Source of the DNA: an uncultured Chthonomonadaceae bacterium
GTDB taxonomy: Bacteria > Armatimonadota > Chthonomonadetes > Chthonomonadales > Chthonomonadaceae
DNA length: 64,000 nucleotides
Assembly: GCA_963817895.1 (NCBI GenBank)
Contig: CAWFQB010000003.1
Coordinates: 448,001-512,000, forward strand
Reading direction: 5' to 3'
The position numbers and the translations under genes were made by a program. Each line of letters starts with the position of its first letter. Positions within the stretch are counted from its first letter, which is position 1. Below are positions 2,206 to 62,412 of this stretch, in pieces. Under the pieces are notes generated by a model. That model ran no database searches and was not told the origin of the DNA. It was given only the letters and a program-made list of their open reading frames with translations.

Positions 2206-2910
2206 ATGTCCGAAACCAACGACGGCAACAATCAGGAAGCCCCTGATACGGCAGGACAGCCCAAGCAATTCTGGCCGCGCGAGCCATTCAGCGGGCTTTC
2301 ACATCTTGTGGGCGCGTTCCTCTCTGTTTTGGGACTGGTTGCGCTGCTGATACTGTCGCGGGGCAAGCCCTGGCACACGCTTGGCTTCGCTATTTACGGC
2401 AGCAGTCTGATTCTGCTGTACATGGCAAGCGGATTGTACCATAGCCTGCATGTATCCGAACGGCGGCTCAACGCGCTGATGCGTTTCGACCACAGCGCGA
2501 TTTTCCTGCTGATTGCCGGAACCTACGCGCCCCTGTGTCTGGTTCCCCTGCGCGGGGCATGGGGCTGGAGTTTGCTTGCAGCAGAGTATCTGTTGGCCGC
2601 GCTCGGCATCGGCTGCGTCTTGTTATTCAACGGCAAGCCGGAATGGGCGCGCGTCGCGCTGTATGTCGGCATGGGGTGGCTGGCCCTGATTGCCCTGCCC
2701 TCCCTGTGGGCGGCCCTGCCTCCCGGCGCGGTGTGGTGGCTGGTGGGCGGCGGCGTATTATATACGGTGGGAACCGTATTCTATGCTACCAACTGGCCGC
2801 GTTTGTGGCCGGGAAAGTTCGGTGCGCACGATCTATGGCATGTGTTTGTATTGGGAGGCAGCGCGTGTCACTTTGTTTTGATGCTTTATGTGTTAGGGAG
2901 TAGGGAGTAG
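2206..2910 (+). CDS. trhA: hemolysin III / PAQR family membrane protein
   Basis: EPFSGLSH, SGLYH, DHSAIFLLIAGTY and HDLWHVFVLGG motifs; about 7 TM. Confidence 0.9.
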   Translation: MSETNDGNNQEAPDTAGQPKQFWPREPFSGLSHLVGAFLSVLGLVALLILSRGKPWHTLGFAIYGSSLILLYMASGLYHSLHVSERRLNALMRFDHSAIFLLIAGTYAPLCLVPLRGAWGWSLLAAEYLLAALGIGCVLLFNGKPEWARVALYVGMGWLALIALPSLWAALPPGAVWWLVGGGVLYTVGTVFYATNWPRLWPGKFGAHDLWHVFVLGGSACHFVLMLYVLGSRE

Positions 2911-2983
2911 GGGTTAGGGAGTAGGAAAAGCGTTGTTCCACTTGCGCATTATTCTACTCCCTACTCCCTGACCCCTACTCCCT
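2894..2983. repeat. mirrored heptamer inverted-repeat element, (TAGGGAG)n / (CTACTCC)n
   Basis: arms 2894-2925 and 2954-2983; left arm contains the stop codon of the hemolysin III gene. Confidence 0.9.
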
Positions 2984-3006
2984 GCGTAATAGAAAGGGGT
3001 TGCCTA

Positions 3007-3213
3007 ATGGCATCCGGAGAAGTTCCTGTTGTTTGTCCGCAGTGTCAGCATCGGGCCAGTGTGCCTGTTGCCGCCGTCAAGCGAGACAACTACTATTGTG
3101 GAAAATGTTTTGAGCGTATTCCGATGGTTGGAGTACGCACATTCAGTTCCGAAGGCGACAACCGCTCCGTTGCGGCGCGTCCCAAGAAGAGCAGCAAAGT
3201 TCACCGCCGCTAA
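3007..3213 (+). CDS. small zinc-ribbon protein
   Basis: CPQC...CGKC and basic tail; AAGGGG RBS. Confidence 0.65.
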   Translation: MASGEVPVVCPQCQHRASVPVAAVKRDNYYCGKCFERIPMVGVRTFSSEGDNRSVAARPKKSSKVHRR

Positions 3214-3636
3214 CAGCGCAACTAAACATAAGAGTCACACCCAACAGTGAATACTCGCCGCAGCAACCCGGATTAAACTCAGGTTTCTGCGGCGGTTGCG
3301 CTTTGGGATTGCCGCGTACAGGCGCGGGGAACAATAGCGGAGTGTATCGCGTCCTGCCTGCTTCTACCTGCCTCATTCGTCTTAGTTTCGCGTAATACCT
3401 GCGCAAGCATTTGTTGCAAACTGTGGCGAAACCCATGATTTTAGTGTAGAATAGACGTATAGAAAGCCGAAGATAAGGCTATGGCTGCCTTTGCCGTCTT
3501 CACAGACCGGGATTGGCAGGGGCTTTGTTGTTTGCGGGCTGTCCACACTCGCTACTCCTTTCCGACTGCTTCAAGAAGACAGTGATATGGCGTTCGAGAT
3601 AATTATGGACTGGAACGCCTTTCTGGAACCGGCATC

Positions 3637-6486: not shown

Positions 6487-8242
6487 GTGGATCAGTTTCG
6501 ACGATTATTAGGCTATTTACGCCCCTATCGCAAGCGCGTCGGGCTGGCGGTCTTCCTGCTGCTGTGTCAGGCGACCACGCCCGTTATCATGCCCAAACTG
6601 CTGCAATACGCGCTTGACGACGTGTTGCCGCATCATCGCTACGGAACGCTGAACTGGATCGGAATCGGCATTTTCGCGCTGTACGCCCTGCGCGGCGTGA
6701 TCTCTTTCGCGCTCAACTATATCATCGGCTGGCTGGGGCAGCGCATTGTTTTCGATCTGCGCTTTCAATCCTATCGCCACCTGAATCGCCTGTCCCTCGC
6801 CTACTACGACACGCGGCAAACGGGCAAAATTATCTCGCGCCTGATGAGCGATATTGACTTTATTCAGCAGATGATTTCTGGCAACTTTGTGCAGTTTATG
6901 GCGGACTCGATGAGCGTGATTATCGTGCTTGCCATGCTGTTCAATATTCAGTGGCGGCTTGCCCTTGTCGCCCTGATAGCCATCCCCTTTTATGTGCTGA
7001 ACTACAAGCTGTTTATCCGCCACATTCGCCCCATCAGCGAGGAGTTGCGCGAAAAATGGGACGCCCTTCTCGGCATGTTGCAGGAGAAGTTGACGGGCAT
7101 CAACGTTGTGAAAGCGTTTGTGCGCGAGGATTATGAAACCGAAAAGTTCATGGGAACCGTGATGGACAATTTCACGCTCGGCATGAAGCAGATGAAGATG
7201 AACCGGCGCTTGCAGGGCGTGGCACAGGTGATACGCGGCATCGGAACCGGCCTGGTGCTGTGGTACGGCGGCGCGTTGATATTGCATCGGTATATGCGCA
7301 TCGGGGAACTGATCGCTTTCAACGCCTTAATCGCGCAATTGTACGACCCGGCTGTACGCATCGTGGACTTTAATGTGCAGGTGCAATGGACGGGCGCGGC
7401 GATTGAACGCATATTCGAGACGCTGGACACGCGCCCCGAAATTGTGGACGCGCCCAACGCCGTGACCATCAAGCAAATGGCGGGCGCGGTGGAGTTCCAG
7501 AACGTGTCGTTCGGCTACGATCCGAATCTATCCCGTGCTGCACGACATAGATTTGAGGGTAAATCCCGGCGAGATTATCGCCATTGTCGGACCGTCCGGC
7601 GCGGGCAAAACAACCCTCGTCAATCTCATTGCCCGTTTTTACGATGTGAATCAGGGGCGCATACTGGTGGATGGAACCGATTTGCGGCAGGTGCGGTTGG
7701 AATCGGTGCGGCGTCAGATCGGCATCGTCAGTCAGGAGAGCCTGCTGTTTTCCGTCTCGTTAAAAGAGAACATCCGGTACGGCAAGCCGGGTTCGACGGA
7801 TTTGCAGATATTGCAGGCGGCCAAAAACGCCGACATGCACAACTTCATTATGAACCTGCCGCACGAGTACGATACGAAGATAGGGGAAGACGGCATCAAA
7901 TTATCGGTAGGCCAGAAGCAGCGCATGAGCATCGCCCGCGCCACGCTTACCGACCCGAAAATCCTGATTCTCGACGACGCGACAAGCGCCTTAGACAGCA
8001 AAACGGAAGCGAATGTGCAAGCGGCTTTAGAACGATTGATGAAGGGCAGAACGTGTTTCGTGATCGCGCACCGGCTTTCCACGATTATGAACGCGGACCG
8101 CATTGTGGTTATGGAATTGGGCCGAATTGTGGATGTGGGAACGCACGACGAACTGGTAGCGCGTCCCGGCGTGTACCAGAAACTCTACAATGAGCAGTAC
8201 CGCAGCGCGAGAGAAGAGGCCATGGAAGCCCTCTTCGCGTAA
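6487..8242 (+). CDS. ABC exporter partner subunit (one +1 indel near 7531, probable read error)
   Basis: TMD in 6487 frame joins NBD of 7535-8242 (GPSGAGKT, LSVGQ, ILDDA, AHRLST) at 'GYDPNL/PVLHDIDL'. Confidence 0.9.
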
Positions 8243-11181: not shown

Positions 11182-11256
11182 AGCGTTAAGCGTTAAGCGT
11201 TGAACATTAAGAGAATACGAGGAGGTTTCGCCCCTCAATGCTTAACGCTGAACGCT
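11182..11256. repeat. imperfect mirrored heptamer element, (AGCGTTA)n / (TAACGCT)n
   Basis: arms 11182-11211 and 11234-11256 in the typA leader. Confidence 0.8.
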
Positions 11257-12758: not shown

Positions 12759-12783
12759 CCAGCCACCAGCCACCAGTCACCAA
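12759..12783. repeat. (CCAGCCA)n heptamer array overlapping a stop codon
   Basis: ccagcca ccagcca ccagtca cca. Confidence 0.75.
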
Positions 12784-15377
12784 CTCGTGTTGCCAATCTC
12801 CGGCAGGCCCCGGCCAAACCGGTCGCTCACCGTCAGGCTGAATTGGAACGGTTCGCTTCCGCGCACCCATTTGACGAGCAGGGCATTGTCACCGGCGTTG
12901 AGCGTCACGTCCGCTGTCCAATGTCCACTGCCCAGAATGGGGCGGAACGGTTCGCGGTTAAAGCGGCGCAACACGAGCGCGCCGTTGAGCCAGAGTTTCA
13001 CGCCGCTGTTGGTGTTAGCGACGAGCCGCGCTTCCCGCGTGGTGGGACTGCGCAGAACGGTTTGCCCGTAAACCACGCCCGACGAGGCGCGAAACTGCGG
13101 TTCCAGGTCCAGAACGGCTTCGGTATACGCGCGCTTTTCCCAGCGCGCGTTCTGCATACTGCGGCTCACGTAACTCTCATGAAGACCCGGACGGTCTTCC
13201 GGCGCATACGCGCGGTCGAACCCTTCGCCATCGAAATTAGCGAATGGCCCCACCGTCCACCAACAGTTTGCCCCGATCAGGACGAACTCGGCCTCAAAGG
13301 GCGGCGTCTGGTCGTCGGGCGTAAACCGCAGCGTGACGGCATTGGCAATGTCAATCCGCGCCGCGCCTTCGGGCGCGCGGACGGAAAAATCGGCGCGGAG
13401 CGTTCCCTGACGCGCGGCAAGAAACTGCCGTTGCCCCATGTTGGGCGGCGCGGCAATCTGCCATCCGGGGGGAGCCAGCAGGGTAATACGCCCGCTAAAC
13501 GGTTCCGCGCTGTGATTGGTCACGTAAAAGGAGAGCGTTTTGGGAGCGTTGATCGCCACTGTGGGCGACTCCCCTGTGTCCATAACCACCTCCAGAAAGC
13601 CCGCCTGCCCGACAAGCGCGTTGGGCGGCGTAATCAGCAGGGGCTTGACGCGCGTACTGTCCGCCCAGGCAATCGCGTCTATCAGGTCGGGAGCGGGAGC
13701 CGCGCCTCCAGACGGAGTACCGGCAGAAGAATCGGTCGTGGCTTCCACGTAAGGCGAAGGCGACGCGCTGACCGCCTGCGGCCTGAAAGCAATCCCCAAT
13801 GCAGGCGCGGGCGGCGTGTTGGTCGTCTCGTAAGCCGCCGTCTGCGCAGGCAGGGAGGCAGGAGTTGAGAGTTGAGAGTTGAGAGTTGATAGGGATTTTT
13901 CTTTTTCCTTTTCCCTTTTCCCTTTTCCCTCTTCTCGTATCTCGTATCTCGCATCTCCTATCTTGTCCTCTTGCAGCGTCAGTCCTGTCTCTTCCCCCGA
14001 GGTTTGCGTTGCCGGGGCGCTTCCGGTCGCAATCAGGTCAGGATCAATAGCAAGGGGGCGTTCTACCGGTTCGGCAGGCTGCTTGTACGGCAAAGCGTCG
14101 CCCGGCATTACGGCCATGTCCGCAGGCGGCAGCGTTTCCCCGGCAAGGGGAGAATTGGGTAAGGAGGAAGGGGGAAGGAGGAAGGAGGAAGCCTCTCCTT
14201 CTCGTATCTCGTATCTTGTATCTCGTGTCTCTCCTGTCTCCTCATCGGGCATTATCTCCAGGCCCGCGAAACGAGATTCAATATCGGCAGACGCGGCGAG
14301 TGGGGCCGTAGAGGAAGATGCAGTGTGGGGCGCGGGAATATCGGCGCCGGAAAGCATCGGGGAGGAGTTCCCCTCCATTAATTCCAGGTCGGAACAGCGT
14401 TCGGCGATCACGCGCCTGCCCACCGCAACCACCCGCTCAGCCACTTCGCTTAAACTGAGAGGCGCGTCGTGGTCGCGCATGCCCAGGCCGGGAATGAGCA
14501 GGTCGCCGATGGGAGCGATCCACGCTTCGGGCAACCCGCTGCTGCCTTTGAGGATTCCCTGAACGGCTCCCATCGCGCCGCCAACCGTTTCGGCATCGTA
14601 GCCACAATTCACCGCCGCGCACAGGGACATGCCGAAATCGCGCTGTCCATACAGCAGGCCAATTGTGAAAAACCCCAGGTTCTGTGGCGCGTCTGTGTAA
14701 TTGGGCGAGCCGACCTCGTGCTGTACGCTTTCCCGCGCTTCCAGCCAGCCTGCCGCGCGCTGCCACGCGGCAATGGCGGTTTTCACCGCCCGCGCCACGC
14801 GGCAGGTGCGCGGAATCATGGCAAGTCCGATGGTGGCAAGGATAATGGGATCGCTGAGGAAGAACGCCGCGCTGCCCAATGCGGCCAGGAACATGGCGGC
14901 CCAGACACCCTCCTCGCTGTGATCGAGTTTTGCGTCATGGTAGGCATACGCGGCGGCGATTTGCGGCGCGCCCGGCGCGATCATGGCCCAGAAATCCGCC
15001 CGCATCACTCCGCCTGTCGCATGACGGAACCAGTTGGAATACGCCCCGGAAGCGGGCGGGGGCAGGCCCCGGCGCAGATTCAGGGCGGCATAGCCGAATT
15101 CGTCCTGCGCATAATCCAGATGTTCCAGCCAGGCGACGGCAAGGTCTTCGGAAACCACGTCCGGGCCGCTCTCTTCCAGCGCGTGAAGCCAGACGAGCGG
15201 AAAGTCCAGCGCGAGACTGGCTGCGGGCTGGCCGGGAACCGGGCTGTAAAAGTTGTTGCGCCCGGGCGTTAATTGTCCGCGCAGTCCGGCTCCCAGAGTG
15301 ACGCCCGCGCTTTTGCCCTGCCAGGCTCCCAAAATCTTGTCGTGGTAGGTTCCTACCGTGATTGTCAATGCCGCCAT
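12777..15377 (-). CDS. ADP-ribosylglycohydrolase-family protein with long repeat-invaded linker and C-terminal beta-sandwich domains
   Basis: DKILGAWQGK..G..LG, GGVMRADFWAMIAPG, AVNCGYDAET; C-terminal WTVGPF / GVKLWLNG module. Confidence 0.85.
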   Translation of the reverse strand: MAALTITVGTYHDKILGAWQGKSAGVTLGAGLRGQLTPGRNNFYSPVPGQPAASLALDFPLVWLHALEESGPDVVSEDLAVAWLEHLDYAQDEFGYAALNLRRGLPPPASGAYSNWFRHATGGVMRADFWAMIAPGAPQIAAAYAYHDAKLDHSEEGVWAAMFLAALGSAAFFLSDPIILATIGLAMIPRTCRVARAVKTAIAAWQRAAGWLEARESVQHEVGSPNYTDAPQNLGFFTIGLLYGQRDFGMSLCAAVNCGYDAETVGGAMGAVQGILKGSSGLPEAWIAPIGDLLIPGLGMRDHDAPLSLSEVAERVVAVGRRVIAERCSDLELMEGNSSPMLSGADIPAPHTASSSTAPLAASADIESRFAGLEIMPDEETGETRDTRYEIREGEASSFLLPPSSLPNSPLAGETLPPADMAVMPGDALPYKQPAEPVERPLAIDPDLIATGSAPATQTSGEETGLTLQEDKIGDARYEIREEGKGKREKEKEKSLSTLNSQLSTPASLPAQTAAYETTNTPPAPALGIAFRPQAVSASPSPYVEATTDSSAGTPSGGAAPAPDLIDAIAWADSTRVKPLLITPPNALVGQAGFLEVVMDTGESPTVAINAPKTLSFYVTNHSAEPFSGRITLLAPPGWQIAAPPNMGQRQFLAARQGTLRADFSVRAPEGAARIDIANAVTLRFTPDDQTPPFEAEFVLIGANCWWTVGPFANFDGEGFDRAYAPEDRPGLHESYVSRSMQNARWEKRAYTEAVLDLEPQFRASSGVVYGQTVLRSPTTREARLVANTNSGVKLWLNGALVLRRFNREPFRPILGSGHWTADVTLNAGDNALLVKWVRGSEPFQFSLTVSDRFGRGLPEIGNTSW
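13862..14240. repeat. five intragenic heptamer arrays: GAGTTGA, TTTTCCC, TCTCGTA (twice), AAGGAGG
   Basis: arrays at about 13862-13889, 13896-13931, 13933-13957, 14161-14191, 14201-14240; frame preserved. Confidence 0.9.
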
Positions 15378-22511: not shown

Positions 22512-22550
22512 GGGTGTTCGGTGTTCAGGTGTTCAGGTATTCAGGTGTTG
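22512..22550. repeat. solo (GGTGTTC[A])n array
   Basis: ggtgttc ggtgttca ggtgttca ggtattca ggtgtt, just after a TATACT box. Confidence 0.8.
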
Positions 22551-25245: not shown

Positions 25246-25360
25246 AGGTTGTTAGGTTGTTAGGTTGTTAGTTAATGGCTGTGTCGCGCCGAAGTAACTA
25301 CTGTTCTTCTGCCTGCCTGAAGACCTAAAAACCTAACAACCTAACAACTAACAACCTAAC
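25246..25360. repeat. mirrored octamer element, (AGGTTGTT)n / (AACAACCT)n
   Basis: arms 25246-25273 and 25324-25360 between convergent stops. Confidence 0.9.
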
Positions 25361-26665: not shown

Positions 26666-27292
26666 ATGAGCATAAGACATTTTTCTGATGCTCCGTCACT
26701 TTCCGAAACTTCCACACTGAACCATACTGTTGCACTGCGCGCGAAATGTGACGGCTACCATATCAGCACAACAAGTACCCTGAATAAGCGCGGAAGCGTT
26801 CTGATTGTCAGCGCCAGCGCCGACACCGAAGTTTGCAGCATGATCGAATTCGACGTAAGTTCTCTCCCTGCTGCCGCTACGGTCACGCGCGCCACCCTGC
26901 AAGTCTACGTGACGGATTGCCGCCTCGCCATACCTGAAGAAGCTCTGACGCTGTGCTGCTATGGCTACATCGGGGACGGGGACATCACGATAGACGATGT
27001 GGGCGCAGGCAGAATGGCAGGCGTTTCTACCCTGACGAACTCGCGCGTTACCGGTTCAGTGCGTCTTGACATCGCGCCGGAGTTTGTGGAACGCGCGTGG
27101 GAAACGGGCTATGCGGGCTTCCGCCTTGCAGCCTCCGCGTCCACCCTGACGCCCCGCCCCAACGGCCTGTTCCTGCGATCACTGGAAAATACGCAACCGG
27201 ACTCCGCGCCGATGCTATTCCTTGATTACGCTGTTCCAGACACATCGGATGACCGGTGTGTGGTAGCAATACGCCCGGACATGGCTCCGTAG
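26666..27292 (+). CDS. DNRLRE-like beta-sandwich protein
   Basis: IEFDVSSLPAAATVTRATLQVY...PMLFLDY pattern. Confidence 0.55.
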   Translation: MSIRHFSDAPSLSETSTLNHTVALRAKCDGYHISTTSTLNKRGSVLIVSASADTEVCSMIEFDVSSLPAAATVTRATLQVYVTDCRLAIPEEALTLCCYGYIGDGDITIDDVGAGRMAGVSTLTNSRVTGSVRLDIAPEFVERAWETGYAGFRLAASASTLTPRPNGLFLRSLENTQPDSAPMLFLDYAVPDTSDDRCVVAIRPDMAP

Positions 27293-27399
27293 TCGGTGTT
27301 CGGTGTTCGCAGGTTTCGTTGGTAGTTCTACCGCGTTAAAGCAAACCGGTAACTGCCGCATTGCCCGAACGCCAAATACCGAACACCGAACACCGACTA
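27290..27399. repeat. mirrored heptamer element (GGTGTTC), 20-bp perfect arms
   Basis: tagtcggtgttcggtgttcg (27290-27309) / cgaacaccgaacaccgacta (27380-27399). Confidence 0.9.
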
Positions 27400-36378: not shown

Positions 36379-36510
36379 AGGTGTTAGGTGTTAGGTGTCA
36401 GGTGTTAGGGAAAACAGTCTGCTGCCATTGGTTCTCGATTTCAGCCGTAGAATCAACCGTGCAGGCACTGTCCTGACACCTAATACCTAACACCTGACAC
36501 CTAACACCTA
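36379..36510. repeat. mirrored heptamer element, (GGTGTTA)n / (TAACACC)n
   Basis: arms 36379-36409 and 36472-36510; the variant unit ggtgtca is mirrored; ends 3 nt before the Anbu ATG. Confidence 0.9.
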
Positions 36511-37247: not shown

Positions 37248-37276
37248 GGAAGGGAAAAGGGGAAAGGGAAAAGTAG

Positions 37277-38075
37277 ATGCAGACTGATAATTCTGGACGG
37301 GCGTTGGATGATGATACGCTGGACACGATGACAATTGGTTACAGCAACAGTATGCGGGTGAACGACGAAAACCGGGAGGCCAAATTCAACGGTTTTCTGG
37401 CGCAGCCTAAAGATGGAGCAAAGCGTGGGAGCGTGATCGTCGTCCACGAGATTTTTGGCCTTACGGATCATATCAAAGATGTTGCCTGTCAGATACGCGC
37501 GGCAGGGCTATACCGCGCTTGCCATCAACCTGTTCACGCGGGAGGGCGAACCGCCGCCCATTTCCGGCGGTTTCGACGCGCTGAGAGAATTTGTCGGCAA
37601 GATTACAGACGCGCAGGTGATGGGCGATCTGGACGGCGCAATGGAGTTTTTACGCGACGCGGAGGAGTCGAACGGCAAAGTTGGCATTGTCGGCTATTGC
37701 TGGGGCGGGCGGGTTGCCATGCTGTATGATGCCCACGCGCCCACGCTTGATGCCGCCATTGCCTACTACGGGCGCATTGTCGGCGAACCAACGCCCGCGC
37801 AGCCCCACAGCCCGCTCGGCCTTGCCCCACAGATGTATGCGCCCCTGCAAGGACATTTCGGCGCGGAGGATACCAGCATCACGCCCGCCCATGCCGCCCA
37901 ACTGCGCGACGCCCTGCAAGCCGCACACAAAACGGCGGAAATATACGTTTACGACAACGCCGGACACGCTTTCAACAACGAAACGCGGGAATCCTACCGC
38001 CCCGAAGCCGCAAAAATCGCTTTTGAACGCTCGTTGGAATGGTTCGGCATGTATTTGAAGTCCGCTACGGGGTAG
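37277..38075 (+). CDS. dienelactone hydrolase family protein (indel near 37492)
   Basis: VHEIFG, GYCWGG, AGHAF. Confidence 0.9.
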
Positions 38076-40225: not shown

Positions 40226-40257
40226 GGTGATTGGTAGTTGGTGGTTGGCAGTTGGCA
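40226..40257. repeat. solo (TTGGYRG)n heptamer array
   Basis: ttggtag ttggtgg ttggcag ttggca. Confidence 0.75.
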
Positions 40258-43027: not shown

Positions 43028-43261
43028 ACCACGGGGAACACGGGGGACACGGGGAAGAGAAGGGGAGAAATTAAAACCACGGAGGACACGGAGAACAGAG
43101 AGTGAAGAACGGACGAGCGAGGATTGGAAGCAATTTGATACCGATTAAACAGGCAAGCAGGATTACTGCCTCCGTTCCTAATCCTGTCAATCCTGAACAT
43201 CCTGTTAATCTTGTCTATTCTCCCCCTCTCCTCCCCGTGTCCCCCGTGTTCCCCGTGGTTT
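43026..43261. repeat. nested 9-mer inverted-repeat element, 30-bp perfect arms
   Basis: aaaccacggggaacacgggggacacgggga (43026-43055) / reverse complement (43232-43261); inner cacggagga-type and aatcctg-type arrays. Confidence 0.92.
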
Positions 43262-45600
43262 TATTTCTCCTCCTGTGGTTGGTCGTGTGCTGTCCGTCTG
43301 TGGCGCGGGCGCGGGTGGTTGTAGTCGTGTGTGAGCGGCTGACGTGGGAGGATGTCGTTTCAGAGTGTCCGTTTCTGCTCGGTTGGATACAGCAGAATCG
43401 CTGCGCGGTGGGCCTGATGAATACCGCAGTGGCCGGACAGAAGAACCCCACCTCGGCAATGCTGGCAATCGCGCAGGGACAACTCGCGCCTTCGGAACCG
43501 GGGGACGAGCAGGCTGTCAACCTCGTGGAAACGGTTGGCGGCGAACCGGGAACGGGCGCGGTTGTGTACAGGCGGCGGACGGGCGCGGATGTGGCGGCGG
43601 GCCGTACCCTTGTAAATTTGAATGTGGCGTCGCTGGCGCGGCGCGGAATTATCGGGCAGGGGTTGGGCGCGATACTGGCGCAGGCGAACCCGGCAAAGCG
43701 TATTCTGATTTGCGGCAACGTGGATACGGATACGCGGCAACGGCGTGGCGCATTACTGGCGATAAATGCGCAGGGCGCGGCAACGGGTGACGTGGCGCTC
43801 ATCTCCGCCGATAAAAGCAAGCCGTTCGGCGTAACGGACGACATTAACGCGCTTGCCCGCTACGCCGCCACGACTGACGCGGACGTTTTTGTGGCCGTGC
43901 TTGGCGATCTGGCGCGGGTAGAAGCGGCGCGAACGCGGCTGGATACCGCTGCTTATCGCGCAGCGCGTCACGAAGCCTTGCAGCGTTTGGACTCGTTCTT
44001 TCTGCAACTGCTCGCCATACGGCATCTGGACACCGAAACTGTTGACCTGCTGCTGATTTCGCCGTGTCCACCCTCCGCGCTGACCGAACAAATCCCTTCC
44101 GCTTCTTCTCATTTGACGGGCGAAACATGGGAACAGCTTACCCCCATTCTCGCGCTCGGCCCCCATTTTCCGCCCGGACTGCTTACTTCCCCCACCACGC
44201 GAACCCCCGGACTTGTTTCCAACACCGATATTGCCCCCTCCATGCTGCGCGCGCTCGACGTTCCCGTTCCTCCCACCACAACCGGACGCCCGATGCGAAT
44301 TGTCACCGTATCGGGCGGGAGTGAGGCCGTTCTGCCCGTCCTTTCCCGTCTGGATTACGTCACCACCATCAATGCGCGGGCGCTCACTCTGGTTGCCATG
44401 CCGATTGGCGGATTATGCTTTGCGCTCGTGTTGGGGGCCATCTTCGCGTACCGGTTCGGCAAAACGCGGCTGCTGCGCCTGCTTTGCCCCGGAATCGTTT
44501 TCACGCAATCCCTGCCCCTCGGCTTCCTCCTCGCCACTATTCACATTCCGCCCACCCTGCTGGAATACGGCCTGCGCGTCCTCGCGTGTATGGCAGCCCT
44601 GACCGTATGTAGTTACATTTTATCCCGCCTGTTCCGCCTTTCCCCGCCCGTCGCCTGCGGCCTGATAGGAATCATTCTAATCGCCATTGATCTCTGCTGC
44701 GGTCAACAACTGCTGAAAGACTCCCTGTGGAGCGGCTACGCCCTGTCCGGCATCCGCTACTACGGCATCGGCAACGAGTATCTCGGCGTTATACTGGGTT
44801 ACGCGCTGCTCGGCGGCTTTGGGGAAGAATTTGAGGAAGAAAAGGAGAAAAGGAGAAAAGGAGAAAAGGAGAAAAAGAACCACGAAACACACGGGGGCGC
44901 GCCAAAAGAAGAAACCGTAGGGACACAACTAGTTGTGTCCAACACTCAGGAACAGACGCAATCGAAAATCGAAAATCGAAAATCGAAAATCGTCATTCTA
45001 TGTTGGCTGGCGCTGATGGTTTTGCTTGGATGGCCGATGCTGGGAGCCAATGCGGGGAGTTTGATTGTTACCGGGGCGGGGTTCGGAGTGGGAGCATGGA
45101 GTCTTTCAGGGAAGCGGGTGACGGTGTGGACGGCATTGATTTGCCTGTCGGCGGGGATTGCTTTATCGTTTGTATTTGGCGCTATAGATGCGTGGTTGTT
45201 CGGCAGCGGAGCGTCTCATGCGGGCAATGTATTAAGCGCGGCGAACGGGGCGCGGGGCGCGAACTACCTGCTTGAAATTATGGCGCGAAAAGCAACCATG
45301 AACCTGCATCTGCTCACCACGCCGTTTTTCCTGCTCGGCATCAGTCTTGTCGCCATTCTCGGCGGGCTGATGCGCGTGTGGCTTGGCAAGGCCGTACAGG
45401 ATATGCTTCAAACTCATCCACGCTTGAAGCAAAGCCTGCCCGCCCTGACCACAACCCTCCTTGCCGCCCTGCTCTTCAAAGACTCCGGTGTCGTCACCGC
45501 CGGACTACTGACAGGCGTAACCTGCCTCTACTTCCTCTGGCACACGCTTGATACAGAAAAGGAGAAAAGGAGAAAAGGAGAAAAGGAGAAGCGGAATTAG
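43102..45600 (+). CDS. multi-pass membrane protein with alkaline-phosphatase-like extracellular domain; start uncertain
   Basis: GLLTSPTTRTPGLVSNTDIAP, RYYGIGNE, LGANAG, KDSG motifs; many TM. Confidence 0.7.
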   Translation: MKNGRARIGSNLIPIKQASRITASVPNPVNPEHPVNLVYSPPLLPVSPVFPVVLFLLLWLVVCCPSVARARVVVVVCERLTWEDVVSECPFLLGWIQQNRCAVGLMNTAVAGQKNPTSAMLAIAQGQLAPSEPGDEQAVNLVETVGGEPGTGAVVYRRRTGADVAAGRTLVNLNVASLARRGIIGQGLGAILAQANPAKRILICGNVDTDTRQRRGALLAINAQGAATGDVALISADKSKPFGVTDDINALARYAATTDADVFVAVLGDLARVEAARTRLDTAAYRAARHEALQRLDSFFLQLLAIRHLDTETVDLLLISPCPPSALTEQIPSASSHLTGETWEQLTPILALGPHFPPGLLTSPTTRTPGLVSNTDIAPSMLRALDVPVPPTTTGRPMRIVTVSGGSEAVLPVLSRLDYVTTINARALTLVAMPIGGLCFALVLGAIFAYRFGKTRLLRLLCPGIVFTQSLPLGFLLATIHIPPTLLEYGLRVLACMAALTVCSYILSRLFRLSPPVACGLIGIILIAIDLCCGQQLLKDSLWSGYALSGIRYYGIGNEYLGVILGYALLGGFGEEFEEEKEKRRKGEKEKKNHETHGGAPKEETVGTQLVVSNTQEQTQSKIENRKSKIVILCWLALMVLLGWPMLGANAGSLIVTGAGFGVGAWSLSGKRVTVWTALICLSAGIALSFVFGAIDAWLFGSGASHAGNVLSAANGARGANYLLEIMARKATMNLHLLTTPFFLLGISLVAILGGLMRVWLGKAVQDMLQTHPRLKQSLPALTTTLLAALLFKDSGVVTAGLLTGVTCLYFLWHTLDTEKEKRRKGEKEKRN
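44838..44992. repeat. intragenic (AGAAAAGG)n and (AAAATCG)n arrays
   Basis: encode EKEKRRKGEKEK and SKIENRKSKI between TM helices. Confidence 0.9.
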
Positions 45601-45680
45601 ACAAGTTTATATTCTTTTGCGTTTATTTCGCGTCATTCGCGGTTCCCACTCTCCTCTTCTCCTCTTCTCCTTTTCTCCCC
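45556..45680. repeat. mirrored octamer element, (GAAAAGGA)n / (TCCTCTTC)n
   Basis: left arm forms the end of the upstream CDS; right arm follows the stop of the convergent gene. Confidence 0.8.
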
Positions 45681-45696
45681 CTCTCCCTGTCTTCCC

Positions 45697-47697
45697 CTAC
45701 CCCGCCGGTCGGCTGCCGGGCATGGCTTGCAGGGGCATGGCGCGGCGGGTGGCGCGATCACGGACGGGCGGCAGCAGATGGAAGAGGACGCTGAACTGCT
45801 GAGTGCGCAGGCTGTACGCGAAGCCGGCCTGCATACAGTCGAAGTTACGCAGAACGGCGAATTGACTGTCATAGGCGCGGGAGCGTTCCAGATCGAATTT
45901 GGTTTCAAAGCCGAAGGCGTAGGGGCCGCCGGTTTGCGCGATCAGGCGCAATTCGTGACGTATATCCAGATGATCAAAGGCAAATGGCGTCCGGCCCAGA
46001 TCGTCGGTAAAGCGGTACGCGATGCCCAACCGCGTGGTGGAAGTGGGCAGATAGTCCAGTTCCGCTTCGGGCGAAAACAGGTTATAAATGCTGCCTTTGG
46101 AATAGGCGTTGAGCCAGTCGGTGACCCCAAAGCGCAGGGAGATGCGTCTGCCGAGCAGAATCGGCTGCGTGGCGGCTGTAGTGGCAAGCGCCAGTTTGCC
46201 CGATGTGACCCGCGTGGGGTATTCCGTGACGCCGCCCGCGCTCAAATTGAAGTCCAGCAGAAACGGGGCGCTGGACGCGCGCTGCAATATAGGGTTGAAC
46301 GTGGCGCCGCCGGGGGCGTCGGGGGTTCCATCCGCATTGCGCTGTCCGGTCAAATCCGGCTGCCCGTCGCGGGCGTGTCCCAAAACATTGACAAGGCGCA
46401 GGTTCGCTTCGGGAAACCGGGATACGCGCAGGTCGGTGCGCCGCCGATTGTACACGTACTGGTCGTTTTGCAGAATGGCCCCGACAGTGGTACGTGGCGT
46501 AAACTCATCCTCGTAGCGGTCTTCGGCATACTCGCGGTACGTGGGTGGCGTCAGTTGTTCCAGATAGCCGTGCAGTGGGTCGGAAAGCGATTGCCGCAGC
46601 GAGCGGGGCGGGGGGGCTTTGGGCGCGGGCGGTTTCAAATCGAACTCGTACGCGACAAAGCCGGTGGGCAAGCGCTTCACATTGATATGGCCGTCTAATT
46701 CCAGACTCCGGCGCGGTTCCAGAATGGGCGTTTCGTGGATACGCGCAAACAGGCCCTCGCTTTTGTTGTAGCCCGGAGTGGCGGCAAGCAGGTCGCTTTT
46801 GCTGTTCAGATTGCGTTTCAGGGAGGGCAGGGTAATCAGTTTTGTCGCACCCGCGTATACCGTGATTCCTGAAGCCGACACATAGCGATTGGGATGAACC
46901 GTCAGCCGTTTGGCGTGTATCTGATAATCGGGACGGCCCCGGATACAGGTGGTAAAGGTTCCGTTTTCAACCGTGTACGTGCCGTCCGCGTTGGCTTCGA
47001 TGCGGTCGCCGCGCATACGGAAGTAATCGGTTTCGGCAATCGCGTTGGTGACGAACCCGGCGTTGGTGAGGACGTTGAAGGTGATCTCCTGCGCGATGAA
47101 ACTGCCCTCCGAACGATCCAGACGCGCCCCATTGTGAGCGGTCAGCAGGCCGGTATTGCGGTTATACTCCGCGCTTTCGGCGTTGAGCGTGGTCGTGGTT
47201 TTGCTCTGCTCATCCATATAGCGCAGCCGAACGCCCCCCGTAAAAGCGATCACGCCATCCGGTCGAAGGGCAACCGCAGTATTCTGGTCTACCGTAAAGG
47301 GGCCGATTTTGCGGGGTGGGGTGTCGAAAGGGGCGGTATCGGCATCGTCTCGAAAGTTATGGAATACGTCCCGCGCCCGCACCGAAATAATCTCGTCCTC
47401 CGCATTATCCAGCAATAAAATCTTTTCCTCATCCGGGTCGTTTTCTGCTGTAGGAGTGGCTTTCGCTGCGGCAGTGTTGCCGAACGGCGGCAACGCAAAG
47501 GGCGCGTACAAAGCAGGCAGGGAAAAGGTCGGGCGAGAAACCGGGGCATTGTCGGCGCGGACAAGTTGCGGCAAAAGAAGGGATGCGGCGACTAACCATA
47601 CGCTTTTAGCCCTAACAGTGTTCAAATAAAAGTTTGCAGGGACACAACATGTTGTGTCCTCGCGCGCGTGTCTCAAATTTGTCAGTACAGGTGTCAA
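45697..47697 (-). CDS. LptD/OstA-like outer membrane assembly protein; start uncertain
   Basis: beta-jellyroll region with FTTC...PDYQIHAKRL; C-terminal beta strands. Confidence 0.65.
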   Translation of the reverse strand: MTPVLTNLRHAREDTTCCVPANFYLNTVRAKSVWLVAASLLLPQLVRADNAPVSRPTFSLPALYAPFALPPFGNTAAAKATPTAENDPDEEKILLLDNAEDEIISVRARDVFHNFRDDADTAPFDTPPRKIGPFTVDQNTAVALRPDGVIAFTGGVRLRYMDEQSKTTTTLNAESAEYNRNTGLLTAHNGARLDRSEGSFIAQEITFNVLTNAGFVTNAIAETDYFRMRGDRIEANADGTYTVENGTFTTCIRGRPDYQIHAKRLTVHPNRYVSASGITVYAGATKLITLPSLKRNLNSKSDLLAATPGYNKSEGLFARIHETPILEPRRSLELDGHINVKRLPTGFVAYEFDLKPPAPKAPPPRSLRQSLSDPLHGYLEQLTPPTYREYAEDRYEDEFTPRTTVGAILQNDQYVYNRRRTDLRVSRFPEANLRLVNVLGHARDGQPDLTGQRNADGTPDAPGGATFNPILQRASSAPFLLDFNLSAGGVTEYPTRVTSGKLALATTAATQPILLGRRISLRFGVTDWLNAYSKGSIYNLFSPEAELDYLPTSTTRLGIAYRFTDDLGRTPFAFDHLDIRHELRLIAQTGGPYAFGFETKFDLERSRAYDSQFAVLRNFDCMQAGFAYSLRTQQFSVLFHLLPPVRDRATRRAMPLQAMPGSRPAG

Positions 47698-47736
47698 AAA
47701 TGGTACGTTCCTTCAAACCATCATACGGGCGGTGTT

Positions 47737-47776
47737 CAATCCACAATCGTCAATCAAAAATCAAAAATCCAAATCC
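47737..47776. repeat. (MAATCNN)n heptamer array over the HerA stop
   Basis: caatcca caatcgt caatcaa aaatcaa aaatcca. Confidence 0.8.
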
Positions 47777-49485
47777 CGGCTTTGCAGCAGGCGTTCGCGG
47801 CGGGCGGTAACGGCTTCTCTCGTGTCGAGCAGGCTGCCGAAATCGTTGCCCTCGCTCATGGCCTTGCGGAACGGCTCGTCGTCGTACTGCCGGGTCTTGA
47901 CGACGACGGGCATAGGGACGGCATGGCCGAAAATCAAGGCCTGCTGTTTGGTTTCCAGACTGGCAAGCACATTGCGCAGCGTGTTCGCGCCGGATACGCC
48001 CGTCAGCACCGCGTCTATATCCTTCTCATCATCCAGCAGGCAGCAAATTTTGGTTCCCACCTGCGACAGCACTTCATCGTCAATGCCGCTGGGCCGTTGA
48101 TCCACGATGAGCAGGGTGACGTTGTACTTGCGCATTTCGCGGGCAATTGTGCCGAAAATGGTTTGTCCCGCCAGATGGGGCGCGAGAAACTTGTGCGCTT
48201 CCTCAATGGTAATCACGAGCGGGCGCGGCTTGTCGCCATCCCTGCCTAGAGACTGTTCCACAAGCGTTCGGTAAATGTCGTGCAGTCGCCGCGTCAGGAT
48301 GTTGACGACGAGCATATACTGCTTGGGCTGATCGTACTGCCCGAATTCCAGAACAACGTTGCGTCCCTCCTGTAGGGTGCGCAGAATATGGTCTACCGCA
48401 TCATCGTCTCTGGGTACATCGGGTTCCAGAAAGCCCTTGCAGTCCTCAATCAGCACTTTCAGTTTGCGCTGTAGAGCGGAGAGGGCGCCGCTGTGCGCGT
48501 TGTTTTCGCCCACGAACTCTTTGATGTCGTCGGCGTCCATATTCAGAAATTCTTGAAGCCACTTTTTCTGCGTAAACCGCTGCACCAGCAGGTAGCACGT
48601 TTCCACTGCCGTCGCGTTCAGGTTCAATTCGCGTTGCAGCAGCATGATGTCTTCAACCGTGATGGCTGAATAGGGGATACGCACATCGAAATCGGGCGTG
48701 ACATTGCGGCGCAGGCTGCTGGCGCGATCCAGCGTGAAAATCTGAACCCGGTTGCGGAAATACTGTTTCAGGCCGCGCACGGACTTGCGCCCCGCTTCTT
48801 CAGTCGTCCCCTGCCATCCGTATTCGCTGTGCATGTCGAATACTAAATGAACGGCTTTGTCGGCCTTGATCGCGCCGCACAAACACAGGCGCGTTAAAAA
48901 CGTTTTGCCCGTCCCCGACTTGCCGAAAATGGCGTTGGAGCGCTCTACCCATCGGTCGAGGTTCAGGCAAACGGGCGTATCCATATCCAGAGGCGTGCCG
49001 ACGTGGAAGAATTTGGGCTTGCGCTCGTCGCCGAACACGCGGCTGACATCCTCCTGTGTGGCGTCGTACACGGGACTGAAATGGTCAGGAATGGTTTTGA
49101 CGGGCAGTTTGGCGTCTTCGTCTTCGGGGTCGGCGTCCAGAGGTATCATCAGCATGGGGCGCATCTTGATAGTTCCAAATGTGCTTGTTCCCGCCAGCAC
49201 CGCCCGCATCAGCGTCTCTTCGCCGCGCGGGGGATTGACCAATACGCCGGGATGGGTGGCAGACAGTTGCACGTCGTTGAGCATGGCGAAAAACTGGAAC
49301 CGTTCACCCTGCACCACGACGAACTTGCCGACGCGCAGTTCCTCGACACTTTTGCCCTCGGCCAGCCGCATTTCCAGCCCTTCCGACAGGCTGCCGCGCA
49401 CAATCACGCCCAATTCTTCGGATTTTCGATTTTCGATTTTCGATTTTGGATTGGAAGACAGGTCACTCACGCTATGCTCCGGCAT
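47761..49485 (-). CDS. herA: HerA/DUF87 family helicase-ATPase
   Basis: HAS-barrel-like N-terminus, GKSGTGKT, FDMHSEYG, IEEAHKF, IAREMRKY, DQRPS. Confidence 0.88.
   Translation of the reverse strand: MPEHSVSDLSSNPKSKIENRKSEELGVIVRGSLSEGLEMRLAEGKSVEELRVGKFVVVQGERFQFFAMLNDVQLSATHPGVLVNPPRGEETLMRAVLAGTSTFGTIKMRPMLMIPLDADPEDEDAKLPVKTIPDHFSPVYDATQEDVSRVFGDERKPKFFHVGTPLDMDTPVCLNLDRWVERSNAIFGKSGTGKTFLTRLCLCGAIKADKAVHLVFDMHSEYGWQGTTEEAGRKSVRGLKQYFRNRVQIFTLDRASSLRRNVTPDFDVRIPYSAITVEDIMLLQRELNLNATAVETCYLLVQRFTQKKWLQEFLNMDADDIKEFVGENNAHSGALSALQRKLKVLIEDCKGFLEPDVPRDDDAVDHILRTLQEGRNVVLEFGQYDQPKQYMLVVNILTRRLHDIYRTLVEQSLGRDGDKPRPLVITIEEAHKFLAPHLAGQTIFGTIAREMRKYNVTLLIVDQRPSGIDDEVLSQVGTKICCLLDDEKDIDAVLTGVSGANTLRNVLASLETKQQALIFGHAVPMPVVVKTRQYDDEPFRKAMSEGNDFGSLLDTREAVTARRERLLQSRDLDF
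49420..49454. repeat. (GATTTTC)n array inside the HerA N-terminus
   Basis: encodes SNPKSKIENRKS. Confidence 0.85.
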
Positions 49486-53649: not shown

Positions 53650-53682
53650 CTGACCCCTGAATCCTGAATCCTGACCCCTGAC
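53650..53682. repeat. (CTGAMYC)n heptamer array before a start codon
   Basis: ctgaccc ctgaatc ctgaatc ctgaccc ctga. Confidence 0.8.
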
Positions 53683-57368: not shown

Positions 57369-57388
57369 GAAGAGAACTCCTTCGGAGC

Positions 57389-57477
57389 AGGGAGTGGGGA
57401 ATAGGTGGTAGGGAGTAGGACAATGCGCAAGTTGAACAATGATTTTCCTACTCCCTACCACCTATTCCCCACTCCCT
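57389..57477. repeat. mirrored heptamer element, 32-bp perfect arms
   Basis: agggagtggggaataggtggtagggagtagga (57389-57420) / reverse complement (57446-57477). Confidence 0.95.
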
Positions 57478-58595
57478 ACCCCATAGCGTGTAAACAGCAA
57501 TTGCTGTAGGTTGCGAATCGAGCGCGCGGCGAACTCTCCGGCCAGAGCGTTCTGTTCCGGGGTGACGTCGGGCGCGTGATGGTCGGTCAGGGTAGGTATG
57601 CGGTTCCGGTGGGCATAACCGGCGGGAACCGCGTCGGGAACTTCTATGCCGGCCAGAGTGGTCACGGCCAGCGTCCACATGCGGGGTACTGTAGTTAAAT
57701 TATAGCCGCCCCCGCCAACAGCCACAATCGGTTTGCCCAACGCCTGCACATCTTTAATCGCTTCAAGCCAGCCCTGCGCGGTCAGGCAGACATGGGCAAG
57801 GGGGTCGAACTCGTGCGTGTCCGTACCCATTTGCAGCACAATGGCATCGGGATGGAACGCTTTCAGAACCGGCAGGGCGGCGGAACGCCACGCATTGAGC
57901 CAGATTTCATCGGTGGTATCGGGCGCGAACGGCAGATTGACGCTGTAACCCTCGCCCGCGCCCTCACCGATCTCGTCCACGTCGCCCGTGCCGGGAAACA
58001 AGAACCGTCCGCTTTCGTGCAGGGACACGGTTAATACGGAGGGGTCGTCGTAAAATAGTTCCTGAACACCGTCGCCGTGATGCACGTCAATGTCCACATA
58101 CGCGACGCGGGCATATTTTTGGCGCAAGCGTCGAATCGCCATCGCGCAGTCGTTGAGGACGCAGAATCCGGCGGCTCTGGCATAGTGCGCGTGGTGCAGG
58201 CCACCCGACATATTGAATGCCACCTGCCCCCCGCCCGCGCCGTCCATAATGGCCTGCGCCGCGTCAATGGAACCGCCGGAATACAGGAGGGACACGTCAT
58301 AAATGTGCGGAAAAATGGGATTGTCGCCCGTGCCGAAGCCGTATTTACGCGCGTTCCGAACGTCCTCGCCCCGGTCGAAGGCGCTGAGAACTTCCAGATA
58401 GTCCCGGCTGTGCGTTTGCGCCGCCTCTTCCCAAGACGCCATTTGTGGCGCAACCACTTCCAGCCCGCTTTGAAACGCGCCGTAGCTGTCCAGCAGATCG
58501 TAAGTCATGCGCAGGCGTTCCGGCTTCAGCGGATGCTGCGGCCCCATGTCGTACCCCAACAGGTCATCGGAATAAAAGAAAAGTGGTCGGCTCAT
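57462..58595 (-). CDS. acuC: histone deacetylase family protein (AcuC-like)
   Basis: HPLKPER, GGLHHA, GFC, DIDVHHGDG, GGGGY. Confidence 0.9.
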   Translation of the reverse strand: MSRPLFFYSDDLLGYDMGPQHPLKPERLRMTYDLLDSYGAFQSGLEVVAPQMASWEEAAQTHSRDYLEVLSAFDRGEDVRNARKYGFGTGDNPIFPHIYDVSLLYSGGSIDAAQAIMDGAGGGQVAFNMSGGLHHAHYARAAGFCVLNDCAMAIRRLRQKYARVAYVDIDVHHGDGVQELFYDDPSVLTVSLHESGRFLFPGTGDVDEIGEGAGEGYSVNLPFAPDTTDEIWLNAWRSAALPVLKAFHPDAIVLQMGTDTHEFDPLAHVCLTAQGWLEAIKDVQALGKPIVAVGGGGYNLTTVPRMWTLAVTTLAGIEVPDAVPAGYAHRNRIPTLTDHHAPDVTPEQNALAGEFAARSIRNLQQLLFTRYGVGSGE

Positions 58596-60537: not shown

Positions 60538-60549
60538 TGTTTTGGGAAG

Positions 60550-60601
60550 GTGAGAGTGGAGAGTGAGAGAACAGGCATTTACTCTCACTCTCCACTCTCA
60601 C
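60550..60601. repeat. mirrored GAGAGT(G) element, 20-bp perfect arms
   Basis: gtgagagtggagagtgagag / ctctcactctccactctcac next to the apt stop. Confidence 0.85.
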
Positions 60602-60604
60602 TCT

Positions 60605-61130
60605 TCACTCGTACCGTATCAACGAATTAATCTCATACGCGCTCAGGGCTTTGCGGCCATCCAGAAAATTCAGTTCGGCGAGAAAGCCGCAGCCGGCCAC
60701 TTTGCCCCCCACGCGCTCAATCAGGCGACAGGCTGCCGCCGCCGTGCCGCCCGTTGCCAGCAGGTCGTCAATCACCAGAATACGCTGTCCGGGCTTGATG
60801 GCGTCGGCGTGCATTTCTACCGTATTCGTGCCGTACTCCAGCGCGTACTCTTCCGTGACCCGCGCGCCGGGCAGTTTGCCCAATTTGCGCAGGGGCACAA
60901 AGCCGACATTGAGCGCGAGCGCAAGGCCGGTTCCGAAAGATAAAACCCCGCGCCTCGATGCCCATCACCAGATCGGGGTTCAAGCCTTTGCCCCATTCCG
61001 CCAGTACATCTATCACTTGTTTCAGCGCGGCGGCGTCCTGCACAACCGGGGTGATGTCTTTGAAAACAATGCCGGGTATCGGAAAATCCGGCACATCGCG
61101 AATCAGGCTTTCGGCCAGCAGTTTGTCCAT
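60605..61130 (-). CDS. apt: adenine phosphoribosyltransferase (indel near 60935)
   Basis: [36 protein letters not shown]. Confidence 0.95.
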
Positions 61131-61134
61131 TAGG

Positions 61135-62258
61135 TTACTCCTCAATTAGGCAAGTATTGACTTCTTTATCGGCAATCCGCCCCGTTTGCGTCACGGCTTT
61201 TTGGGGTTGCGCTTCCAGTAAACTGGTTTCGTAGGGCGGCTCGATAACGCCGCGCTCGGTGATGAAGGCCGTGATGAGTTCGCCGGGAGTCACGTCGAAG
61301 GACGGGATTCAGCACCGCTACACCCTCCGGCGCGACGCGGATGCCCTCGATGTGCGTCACTTCCACGGACTCGCGATCTTCAATGGGGATTTGCAGCCCG
61401 GACGCGAGTTTCATGTCAATGGTGGAAAACGGCGCGGCCACGTAAAAAGGAATATTGTGGTGACGGGCAAGCACGGCAAGGCTGTACGTGCCGATTTTGT
61501 TGGCGGTATCGCCATTCGCCGCGATGCGATCCGCGCCGACAATCACGCAGTCCACTTTGCCCTGCCGCATCAACGCGCCCGCCATGTTGTCGGCGATCAC
61601 GGTGACGGGAATGTTGTCGCGCTGCAATTCCCAGGCGGTCAGTTTCATGCCCTGCAAGCCGGGGACGGGTTTCGTCGGCATAAACGTGAATGCGCTTGCC
61701 CTCTTCCACAGCGGCGCGAATCACGCCCAGCGCCGTGCCATATCCCACCGTCGCCAGCGCGCCCGCGTTGCAGTGCGTCAGCACATTGCCCTGCGCGGGC
61801 ATTAAATCGGCCCCGAATTTGCCCATGCGCCGGTTGGCCGCAATATCCTCGTCCAGCATCAGCCGCGCTTCGGAAAGCATGGCGTCTTTGATGTCCACGG
61901 GGTTGCCGTCCGTGTTTTCCGCCACATCCAGCATCCGGTCAATGGCCCAGAACAGATTCACGGCAGTAGGGCGGGCGGCGCGAAACGTGTCGGCAATGCC
62001 CGTGATACGCTTGAGGAACGATTCGCGGCTGTCGGCGATGATGCCCCGCGCGCCCAGCGCGATGCCCAGAGCCGCCGCGCAGCCAATAGCGGGCGCGCCG
62101 CGCACGACCATCGTGCGTATCGCTTCGGACACTTCGCGCCAGTCGGCCATCTCCACGTACTGCAATTTTTCCGGCAGCGCGGTCTGGTCAATCAGGCGAA
62201 CCTTGCCGCTCTGCCACGCGACCGTTTGCAACTCTTTGTTCTGCGCCCCTAGCTGCAT
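61135..62258 (-). CDS. mtnA: S-methyl-5-thioribose-1-phosphate isomerase (indels near 61668 and 61305)
   Basis: [41 protein letters not shown]. Confidence 0.95.
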
Positions 62259-62282
62259 GTTGTCTCCTTCGGAGAGTAGATA

Positions 62283-62412
62283 GGTAGATGGGTAGATGGT
62301 AGATAGGTAGGAATGCCGCCTAACCTAAAGATGAGTTCAAACAACAATAACATTGTATCAGGCAACTAATGGAGGTTGCAGTTCCTACCTATCTACCATC
62401 TACCCATCTACC
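62283..62412. repeat. mirrored GGTAGAT(R) element, 31-bp perfect arms
   Basis: ggtagatgggtagatggtagataggtaggaa (62283-62313) / reverse complement (62382-62412) containing the mtnP stop. Confidence 0.95.

Follow-up and report, generated by a model that had tools for sequence, protein, structure and literature searches.

Tandem arrays of heptamer units are known from several bacterial lineages. In Xanthomonas, GGGAATC arrays lie in intergenic regions near gene ends and form 70 and 75 convergent inverted pairs, with 83% retained in position in a comparison of two species (Rehm et al. 2015, PMC4692102), and Beggiatoaceae carry intergenic TAACTGA heptamer arrays of 2–6 units that contain stop codons (MacGregor 2015, PMC4679880). 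The P6b hairpin of the Nostoc tRNA-Leu intron is composed of Class 1 and Class 2 heptamer repeats (PMC3488679, citing Costa et al. 2002), while heptamer repeats surround the PF05635 gene of the Coxiella 23S intervening sequence (IVS; S23p) (PMC4990558). The present analysis concerns hairpin elements, each consisting of a tandem array, a spacer and the reverse-complement array, in a 64,000-nt stretch of the genome of an uncultured Chthonomonadaceae bacterium (GCA_963817895.1, contig CAWFQB010000003.1, positions 448,001–512,000; hereafter the window, within which positions are counted, the elements being listed without strand). The 11 loci of this build claimed in a preliminary description are all present. 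Comparison with sister species demonstrated that the sites of such elements are kept while motif and spacer are exchanged, a point absent from that description.

Relation to described repeat systems

In their tandem units of the 7-base type, intergenic location, proximity to gene ends and inverted pairing, the elements agree with the short tandemly repeated repetitive (STRR) sequences of cyanobacteria and with the GGGAATC and P6b repeats. The likeness to Xanthomonas extends to the kept places of the inverted heptamer pairs, but there a single motif, read as G-quadruplex DNA, is kept between species, whereas here it is the site that is retained and the motif that changes. This genome combines at least 15 motifs, most of them unable to form quadruplexes. 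The accessible text of PMC4692102 draws no link to a gene cassette and holds 0 occurrences of ‘helix bundle’.

As in the cyanobacterial STRR and P6b repeats, degenerate heptamers pair into a hairpin, two motif classes can occur at one site, and a variable helix of a structural RNA is occupied, in the present case in the RNase P RNA of the sister species G001 and G002. STRR sequences have reportedly been found in RNase P RNA as well, by Vioque in 1997. The STRR and P6b repeats have been described from individual loci and have served as markers, in contrast to the elements described here, which are genome-wide and tied to protein cassettes. In the 23S IVS that bears an open reading frame (ORF), a PF05635 ORF lies within a heptamer stem, similar to the cassettes found here outside the window. 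The IVS, however, is located in an rRNA gene, whereas protein genes flank the 11 elements and both PF05635 genes, and the elements here are mostly gene-less. The TAACTGA arrays likewise adjoin gene ends and are patchy across phyla, but almost all of them are unpaired direct arrays of one motif, and their author saw no mechanism of spread.

Intergenic hairpins are also formed by repetitive extragenic palindromic (REP) sequences and their hairpin-forming doublets (REPINs), which occur with the REP-associated tyrosine transposase (RAYT), and by MITEs (miniature transposable elements with inverted repeats); in both, a rare gene has the same repeat on either side, and expansions are species-specific. 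Many-copy intergenic inverted arms around a spacer and terminal inverted repeats are points of likeness. In the present elements, however, the arms are tandem arrays, the partners are not transposases, old copies are the apparent target, interiors are not conserved and no consistent target duplication was seen between flanks only 82% alike. In the literature covered, which left subscription journals mostly out, such arrays were not linked to these cassettes outside rRNA, and genome-wide exchange of motifs was not described. The elements belong to the known heptamer hairpins, and their pattern of turnover, which is undescribed, makes the mechanism testable.

Abundance, build and genomic position

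Using an independent seed-and-extend detector, 996 inverted repeats were found in the whole 7.5-Mb assembly (81% complete), of which 426 were periodic, with the G-rich arm first in 414 of these. A control contig shuffled in 6-base blocks yielded 0, compared to 102 in the real one. Tandem Repeats Finder arrays, when paired, made up 474 elements genome-wide (449 G-rich-first, 12 C-rich-first), and neighbouring arrays of the same motif less than 200 bp apart were inverted and G-first in 320 cases, C-first in 11, without skew in 14 and direct in 1. When 10 of the 11 window elements were folded as RNA, leaving out the 236-nt element at 43026, z-scores ranged from −5.9 to −14.2 and 0 of 200 shuffles were as stable. 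Together with the gene positions, this supports the earlier interpretation in that the stems fold strongly and are located in transcribed junctions.

That the hairpins are artefacts of assembly is extremely improbable. The genes for an ABC transporter (6487–8242), apt (60605–61145) and mtnA (61135–62258) are split by frameshifts, so the assembly looks indel-prone and single-base arm variants need read support; no RNA run was listed for this genome, and none of the public sequencing runs contained more than 0.10 of this genome's words. However, the identical build recurs at identical sites in two independent assemblies and a contig obtained from an unrelated run covers the minC–minD element, and the explanation is already refuted for the element class.

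Arms are typically 28–34 bp long regardless of unit length, 7-mer arms having a median of 4.4 units (quartiles 4.0–4.6), and in five 7-mer families the third unit, which was not selected for, was 0.83–0.96 identical. Spacer lengths peak at 40–70 nt (GC content 44% vs 57%), and one 27-nt spacer family has 12 members beneath four arm motifs. The sequence AATGC occurs at 71 of 574 inner ends, compared to 0.7% mid-spacer, across many motif families, and nested and composite elements are common. Membership among the MITEs was rejected since interiors are unconserved (343 of 412 spacers are singletons without a close match, and identity within families is near that of shuffled sequences) and no autonomous transposase element with the same ends was found.

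Positional counts rest on gene calls made anew for this analysis. The stop codon lies −10 to +25 nt from the outer edge in 322 of 461 stop-facing arms, and inside the arm in 118, while start-facing arms peak 10–20 nt ahead of the start codon, the arms occupying the gap from stop codon to ribosome-binding site. A stop triplet is contained in 246 of 449 units. Divergent junctions are depleted, holding 29 of 429 elements compared to 14% of all junctions. Intrinsic terminators were rejected, as TTTT followed the stem within 10 nt at only 47 of 898 ends.

Conservation of sites and exchange of their contents

The comparison with G002 covered 2.63 Mb of approximately 8 Mb, with 722 of 1574 gene junctions mapped and flanks 82% alike. 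A hairpin was also present in G002 at 76 of 109 occupied junctions (22 expected; odds ratio 17), a figure that is a floor because the detector misses some irregular families. When only co-oriented junctions were considered, 65 of 91 slots were shared with the odds ratio unchanged, and restriction to gaps of at least 60 nt left the result unaltered. The motif at the 76 shared slots was identical at 7, differed by 1–2 edits at 36 and by 3 or more edits at 33. The mean distance was 2.2 edits compared to 3.2 after shuffling, and 43 pairs were within two edits, while 15 were obtained by shuffling. The unit-length class (7–8 vs 9–10) was concordant at 75 of the 76 (64 expected).

Both spacers could be extracted at 41 of the 76 shared slots. 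Only 4 of the 41 orthologous spacers ranked in the top 5%, with a mean rank of 0.58 when ties were halved and 0.50 when they were not, whereas four simulations of neutral change, based on the 63% identity of fourfold sites, gave 13–34 of 41 in the top 5% and mean ranks of 0.71–0.95. Plain intergenic gaps, in comparison, reached the top 5% in 32 of 45 cases. The spacers of the hairpins hence diverge faster than neutral.

Gain and loss of elements were seen as well. Clean empty sites, which the preliminary description proposed to look for at orthologous loci, were found. In metagenome contigs from four public runs, which represent relatives only, the minC–minD element was present, replaced by 101 other bases in flanks approximately 95% alike, or absent. 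Of three sites with four-helix-bundle (PF05635) cassettes in G002, two are taken here by short hairpins with a different motif and one is empty. In RNase P RNA, a hairpin occupies one shared position in G001 and G002 but differs in motif between them, and we take this position to be helix P12; the RNase P RNA gene was not found in the present, incomplete assembly. All 11 window slots are occupied in G002, with the motif the same or nearly so at three. That the same gaps are filled in the sister species, usually by a different word, points to a little-described mobile element that repeatedly replaces itself at set positions.

A possible explanation is that insertions occurred independently into a limited set of permissive junctions, with nothing being overwritten. 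The way the elements hug stop codons, the stop triplets in their units and the unrelated motifs at 33 of the 76 shared sites are in line with this, but the odds ratio stays at 17–18 within comparable junction classes, and motif relatedness and unit-length class follow the site. Such independent insertion is decidedly unlikely.

Motif families and mirroring of the arms

The motifs had been described as specific to single loci, whereas they proved to be genome-wide families, the largest comprising 100–184 arrays each, with 151 arrays counted for AGGTTGTT, 139 for GGAGAAAA, 109 for AGGGAGT, 69 for CGGTGTT and 45 for AGATAGGT. A perfect arm of 20–35 bp is found at seven window loci. Four of these arms (27290, 36385, 57389 and 62283) are unique in the genome as exact strings, while the other three are family stock with 4, 11 and 35 exact copies.

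In a test of variant units covering 219 pairs of 10 families, with expectations derived from shuffling, 68 of 209 variant unit types were common to partners (42.3 expected), and rare variant units were mirrored in 9 cases (1.9 expected). The mirrored irregularities reported earlier are thereby real, but approximately two thirds of the variant types are unmirrored and much of the sharing is family stock, and mirroring does not hold as a rule. The refuting comparison named in the preliminary description was run on arrays picked blind to pairing. Of 13 families that could be tested, 3 showed higher identity to the own partner than to unlinked arrays (GAGATAC, p 0.0007; AGGGAGT, p 0.02; ACACAGAG, p 0.02). 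The lengths of partner arms showed no correlation. The private perfect arms, the excess of mirrored variants and the partner identity demonstrate a genuine trace of arm-to-arm copying, confined to a minority of variants, and slippage alone is, as proposed, insufficient.

At least five non-periodic bases were shared at 29 of 219 outer ends, compared to 8.3 expected. Many of these ends consist of variant units or family caps, and a paired test gave no significance (p 0.31), so that mirroring into the host flanks was rejected as a general rule and concerns only a minority.

Gene cassettes and lineage-specific expansions

The genome holds two TIGR02436/PF05635 four-helix-bundle genes and four GxxExxY genes (PF13366, PD-(D/E)XK), and all six lie between inverted periodic arrays, so that a predicted link to four-helix-bundle genes holds. 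The arm units are 8-mers for the PF05635 genes and 9–10-mers for the GxxExxY genes, every cassette arm motif is also found gene-less in the genome, and one GxxExxY cassette is located 2.8 kb ahead of the window. Among four-helix-bundle loci of many phyla (80 fetched, 79 scored after one incomplete sequence was dropped), 73 of 79 had an array on at least one side and 47 on both sides, with period 7 in 59 of the 73. Protein identity tracked motif similarity over 64 loci (rho −0.39, p 0.001, uncorrected for kinship). In G001, the cassette gene of one GxxExxY locus (L034/L035) is broken by an insertion sequence (IS)-like insertion.

Other candidate movers were rejected. A RAYT/TnpA partner had been suggested, but all three Y1_Tnp (PF01797) genes lack periodic arms and two have unrelated palindromes, which leaves no Y1/RAYT gene with the same repeats and no place for the elements in the REP/REPIN–RAYT class. 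The Y1 transposase at one locus (L008; G000 C5:223662-224000) is flanked by non-periodic palindromes of its own, which have matches dispersed in the genome and likely form a separate REP–RAYT system. IS transposases were dismissed because all four IS-like ORFs between arms have armless copies elsewhere. Four different IS are inserted in hairpin arms or spacers (G000 C3:336273, C3:364006, C2:121358 and C14:676198), one of them with a second copy in another AGGTTGTT arm. A diversity-generating retroelement or adenine-biased mutagenesis was rejected, as the spacers show no base-specific mutation bias and the reverse transcriptase is not beside a cassette. This sole reverse transcriptase (G000 C6:132735-139753), of about 477 aa and of similar length in both sister species, is encoded at the end of an operon for large proteins, and a hairpin element lies directly upstream of it.

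Expansion of the motifs is specific to the lineage. GAGATAC and AGGTTGTT occur at 23 and 19 per Mb here and at 0 in 1.43 Mb of G002, while AGTAGTC and AGGCATT show the reverse pattern. Of 41 genomes of the family, one contained a match to the AGTAGTC hairpin pattern, namely G002, where the four-helix-bundle gene carries AGTAGTC arms. In G001 (97% complete), no four-helix-bundle gene was found, GxxExxY genes are present, and 160 kb contained 1 paired 7–8-mer element (6 per Mb), compared to 57 and 81 per Mb.

These data bear on the explanation nearest to the one given in the preliminary description, namely that the elements are old RNA stems kept by the host as RNase III sites or mRNA stabilisers and shaped by slippage and hairpin template switching, with no dedicated protein. 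The persistence of slots across three species, the strong folding, the depletion at divergent junctions and the partial mirroring are consistent with this view, as is the heptamer stem of the Coxiella IVS, which is cut by RNase III (PMC4990558). Under independent drift at each site, however, a single motif could not come to fill dozens of sites in one species while being missing from 40 others, and clean empty sites exist. As the cassettes are left unexplained in addition, host-kept stems appear quite unlikely.

Proposed mechanism

We place the probability at roughly 0.5 that the elements are non-autonomous hairpins, moved in trans by the cassette proteins and preferentially overwriting older elements. 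They would be gene-less mobile hairpins of roughly 90–130 bp with arms in common with small gene cassettes, four-helix-bundle genes (PF05635) being paired with 7–8-base units and GxxExxY PD-(D/E)XK genes with 9–10-base units. The arms in common, the fixed build (some four units per arm, the G-rich arm leading, an AT-rich spacer of 50–60 nt with AATGC as a common inner word), the position, the gain and loss, the lineage-specific expansions and the kept slots with exchanged contents are established by the observations above. A cassette protein would recognise its own unit and move or copy matching hairpins in trans, and the new copy would land preferentially on an old element, with partial arm homology helping, and overwrite it. 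One arm may be copied from the other on arrival, which would make young copies perfect mirrors and let old ones decay. The host presumably tolerates the hairpins because the RNA stem folds away, both in mRNA gaps and in the variable helix of RNase P RNA. The four to five units of an arm might match the five-subunit ring of the solved PF05635 homologue PDB 2gsc (five chains; PMC4990558), though this likeness is suggestive only.

Several points weigh against movement in trans. The link between gene and motif rests on three related genomes, and in a further genome, G005, the cassette is present with its motif at two loci only, so a cassette does not always drive expansion. The five largest families (GAGATAC, AAGGATG, AGGTTGTT, GGAGAAAA and AGGGAGT) have no cassette in this 81%-complete assembly, in which a tblastn search for cassette genes returned only the six known ones. 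We know of no enzyme activity for PF05635. Alignments of filled and empty sites, with flanks only 82% alike, showed no consistent target duplication. Moreover, spacers of the same family are 0.57–0.64 alike compared to 0.52–0.57 when shuffled (best 0.64 vs 0.52), far below the expectation of recent copy-paste, and by eye the AGTAGTC-family spacers do not resemble the inner ends of the cassette that shares their arms. Near-perfect arms around barely alike spacers fit arm rewriting or error-prone copying better than plain copy-paste.

In an alternative reading, the old element would remain in place and a cassette protein would direct the rewriting of its arms to the currently active motif, templated by RNA or DNA, with rapid mutation of the spacer. 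The near-perfect third units over barely alike family spacers, the AATGC inner ends across motif families, the orthologous motifs that are more related than by chance, the frequent nested and composite elements and the spacer family retained under different arms at 57384 are in favour of rewriting. The orthologous spacers, on the other hand, are less alike than neutral drift predicts and lack a base-specific mutation bias, and no cassette adjoins the only reverse transcriptase. Rewriting in place is unlikely, if by no means negligible.

Returning to movement in trans with overwriting, a more tentative extension is that the elements form a self-overwriting class, in which five-subunit four-helix-bundle proteins or GxxExxY nucleases might each read an array of four to five units of their own word, and hairpins might home into the slots of older hairpins genome-wide after a lineage has gained a new specificity gene.

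Elements of the window

None of the 11 hairpins contains an ORF, and an Rfam scan of the window matched only a tRNA. Two belong to the AGGGAGT family. At 2894–2983, the left arm provides the stop codon of a TrhA/HlyIII gene (2206–2910, + strand), the 27-nt spacer belongs to the 12-member family, and other motifs are present in the sister species. At 57384–57482, between a deacetylase-domain gene and a peptidyl-prolyl isomerase gene, a 32-bp private perfect arm accompanies a spacer of the same 27-nt family, which runs in the opposite direction in the sister species. The AGCGTTA hairpin at 11182–11256, directly upstream of typA, has its motif unchanged and its spacer different in the sister species.

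The AGGTTGTT hairpin at 25246–25360 lies between convergent genes for glcD and a response regulator, a slot that in G002 holds AGGGTTTT arms around an 84-codon ORF with no Pfam family. This ORF (L039:1936-2190) is a possible third cargo type. A second AGGTTGTT hairpin, at 28582–28704 between minC and minD, carries the minC stop codon and has 35-bp perfect arms; the slot holds a different motif in G002 and a solo 10-mer array in G001. A MinD search of a plasmid collection gave no useful context. Between the convergent stop codons of minE and an ORF, the CGGTGTT hairpin at 27287–27402 has a 20-bp perfect arm with a string private to the locus, and a composite of other motifs occupies the slot in the sister species. 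Both convergent genes end in near-identical six bases ahead of the array, and the minE end is unlike that of G002, as if the host flank had been mirrored in this single case.

Directly upstream of a proteasome-beta-like gene, the AGGTGTT hairpin at 36379–36510 has a 25-bp private perfect arm and is matched by an AGGGAAA motif in the sister species. At 36514–37287, the proteasome-beta-like gene adjoins a transglutaminase-like gene, with a hairpin between. The CACGGGGAA hairpin of the 9-mer class (43026–43261) is placed on the stop codon of alaS, and its spacer contains nested solo arrays from other families; the outer motif is the same in G002 and another in G001, and the arms also flank a GxxExxY gene. 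The GGAGAAAA hairpin at 45555–45698, between convergent ORFs, corresponds to a related motif in the sister species. The GAGAGTG hairpin (60550–60610) lies at the 3′ end of apt; its irregular arm is the family stock with 35 exact copies, and a CAGGTGT motif takes its place in the sister species. Finally, the AGATAGGT/GGTAGAT hairpin at 62275–62420, between mtnP and mtnA, has a 31-bp private perfect arm and a motif that also flanks a resident four-helix-bundle gene, and the slot holds AGTAGTC in G002 and the 9-mer class in G001.

Unpaired arrays are also present, with two of different families at 1555–1649 and clusters of several families at 13862–14240, inside the long ORF 12777–15377. This ORF spans two array clusters of intergenic type (13862–13963 and 14157–14240) without a stop; the arrays are translated unless the ORF was called wrongly. 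Solo arrays are GGTGTTCA (22513–22549), AGGGAAA at a gene end (37250–37273), GGTGGTT (40226–40257), GGAGAAAA and AAAATCG (44838–44992), an AAAATCG-like array (47736–47773), CGATTTT (49421–49452) and a degenerate heptamer array at a gene junction (53650–53682).

Implications

For decades, heptamer repeats in bacteria have remained an unexplained curiosity, and the large families PF05635 and GxxExxY lack an assigned function. The pair of genomes compared here gives testable claims, namely the pairing of protein and word, and a kept site with exchanged motif and spacer, which any mechanism must explain. If the hairpins are kept by the host, about one in seven gene junctions bears an RNA stem that has gone unstudied. 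If they are moved by the proteins, this would be a new route of DNA mobility and possibly a programmable reader of repeats. Should the self-overwriting class prove true, it would amount to a transposase-free homing system that targets its own kin, and the STRR sequences, the Xanthomonas GGGAATC pairs, the two P6b classes and the ORF-bearing rRNA IVS would be one thing.

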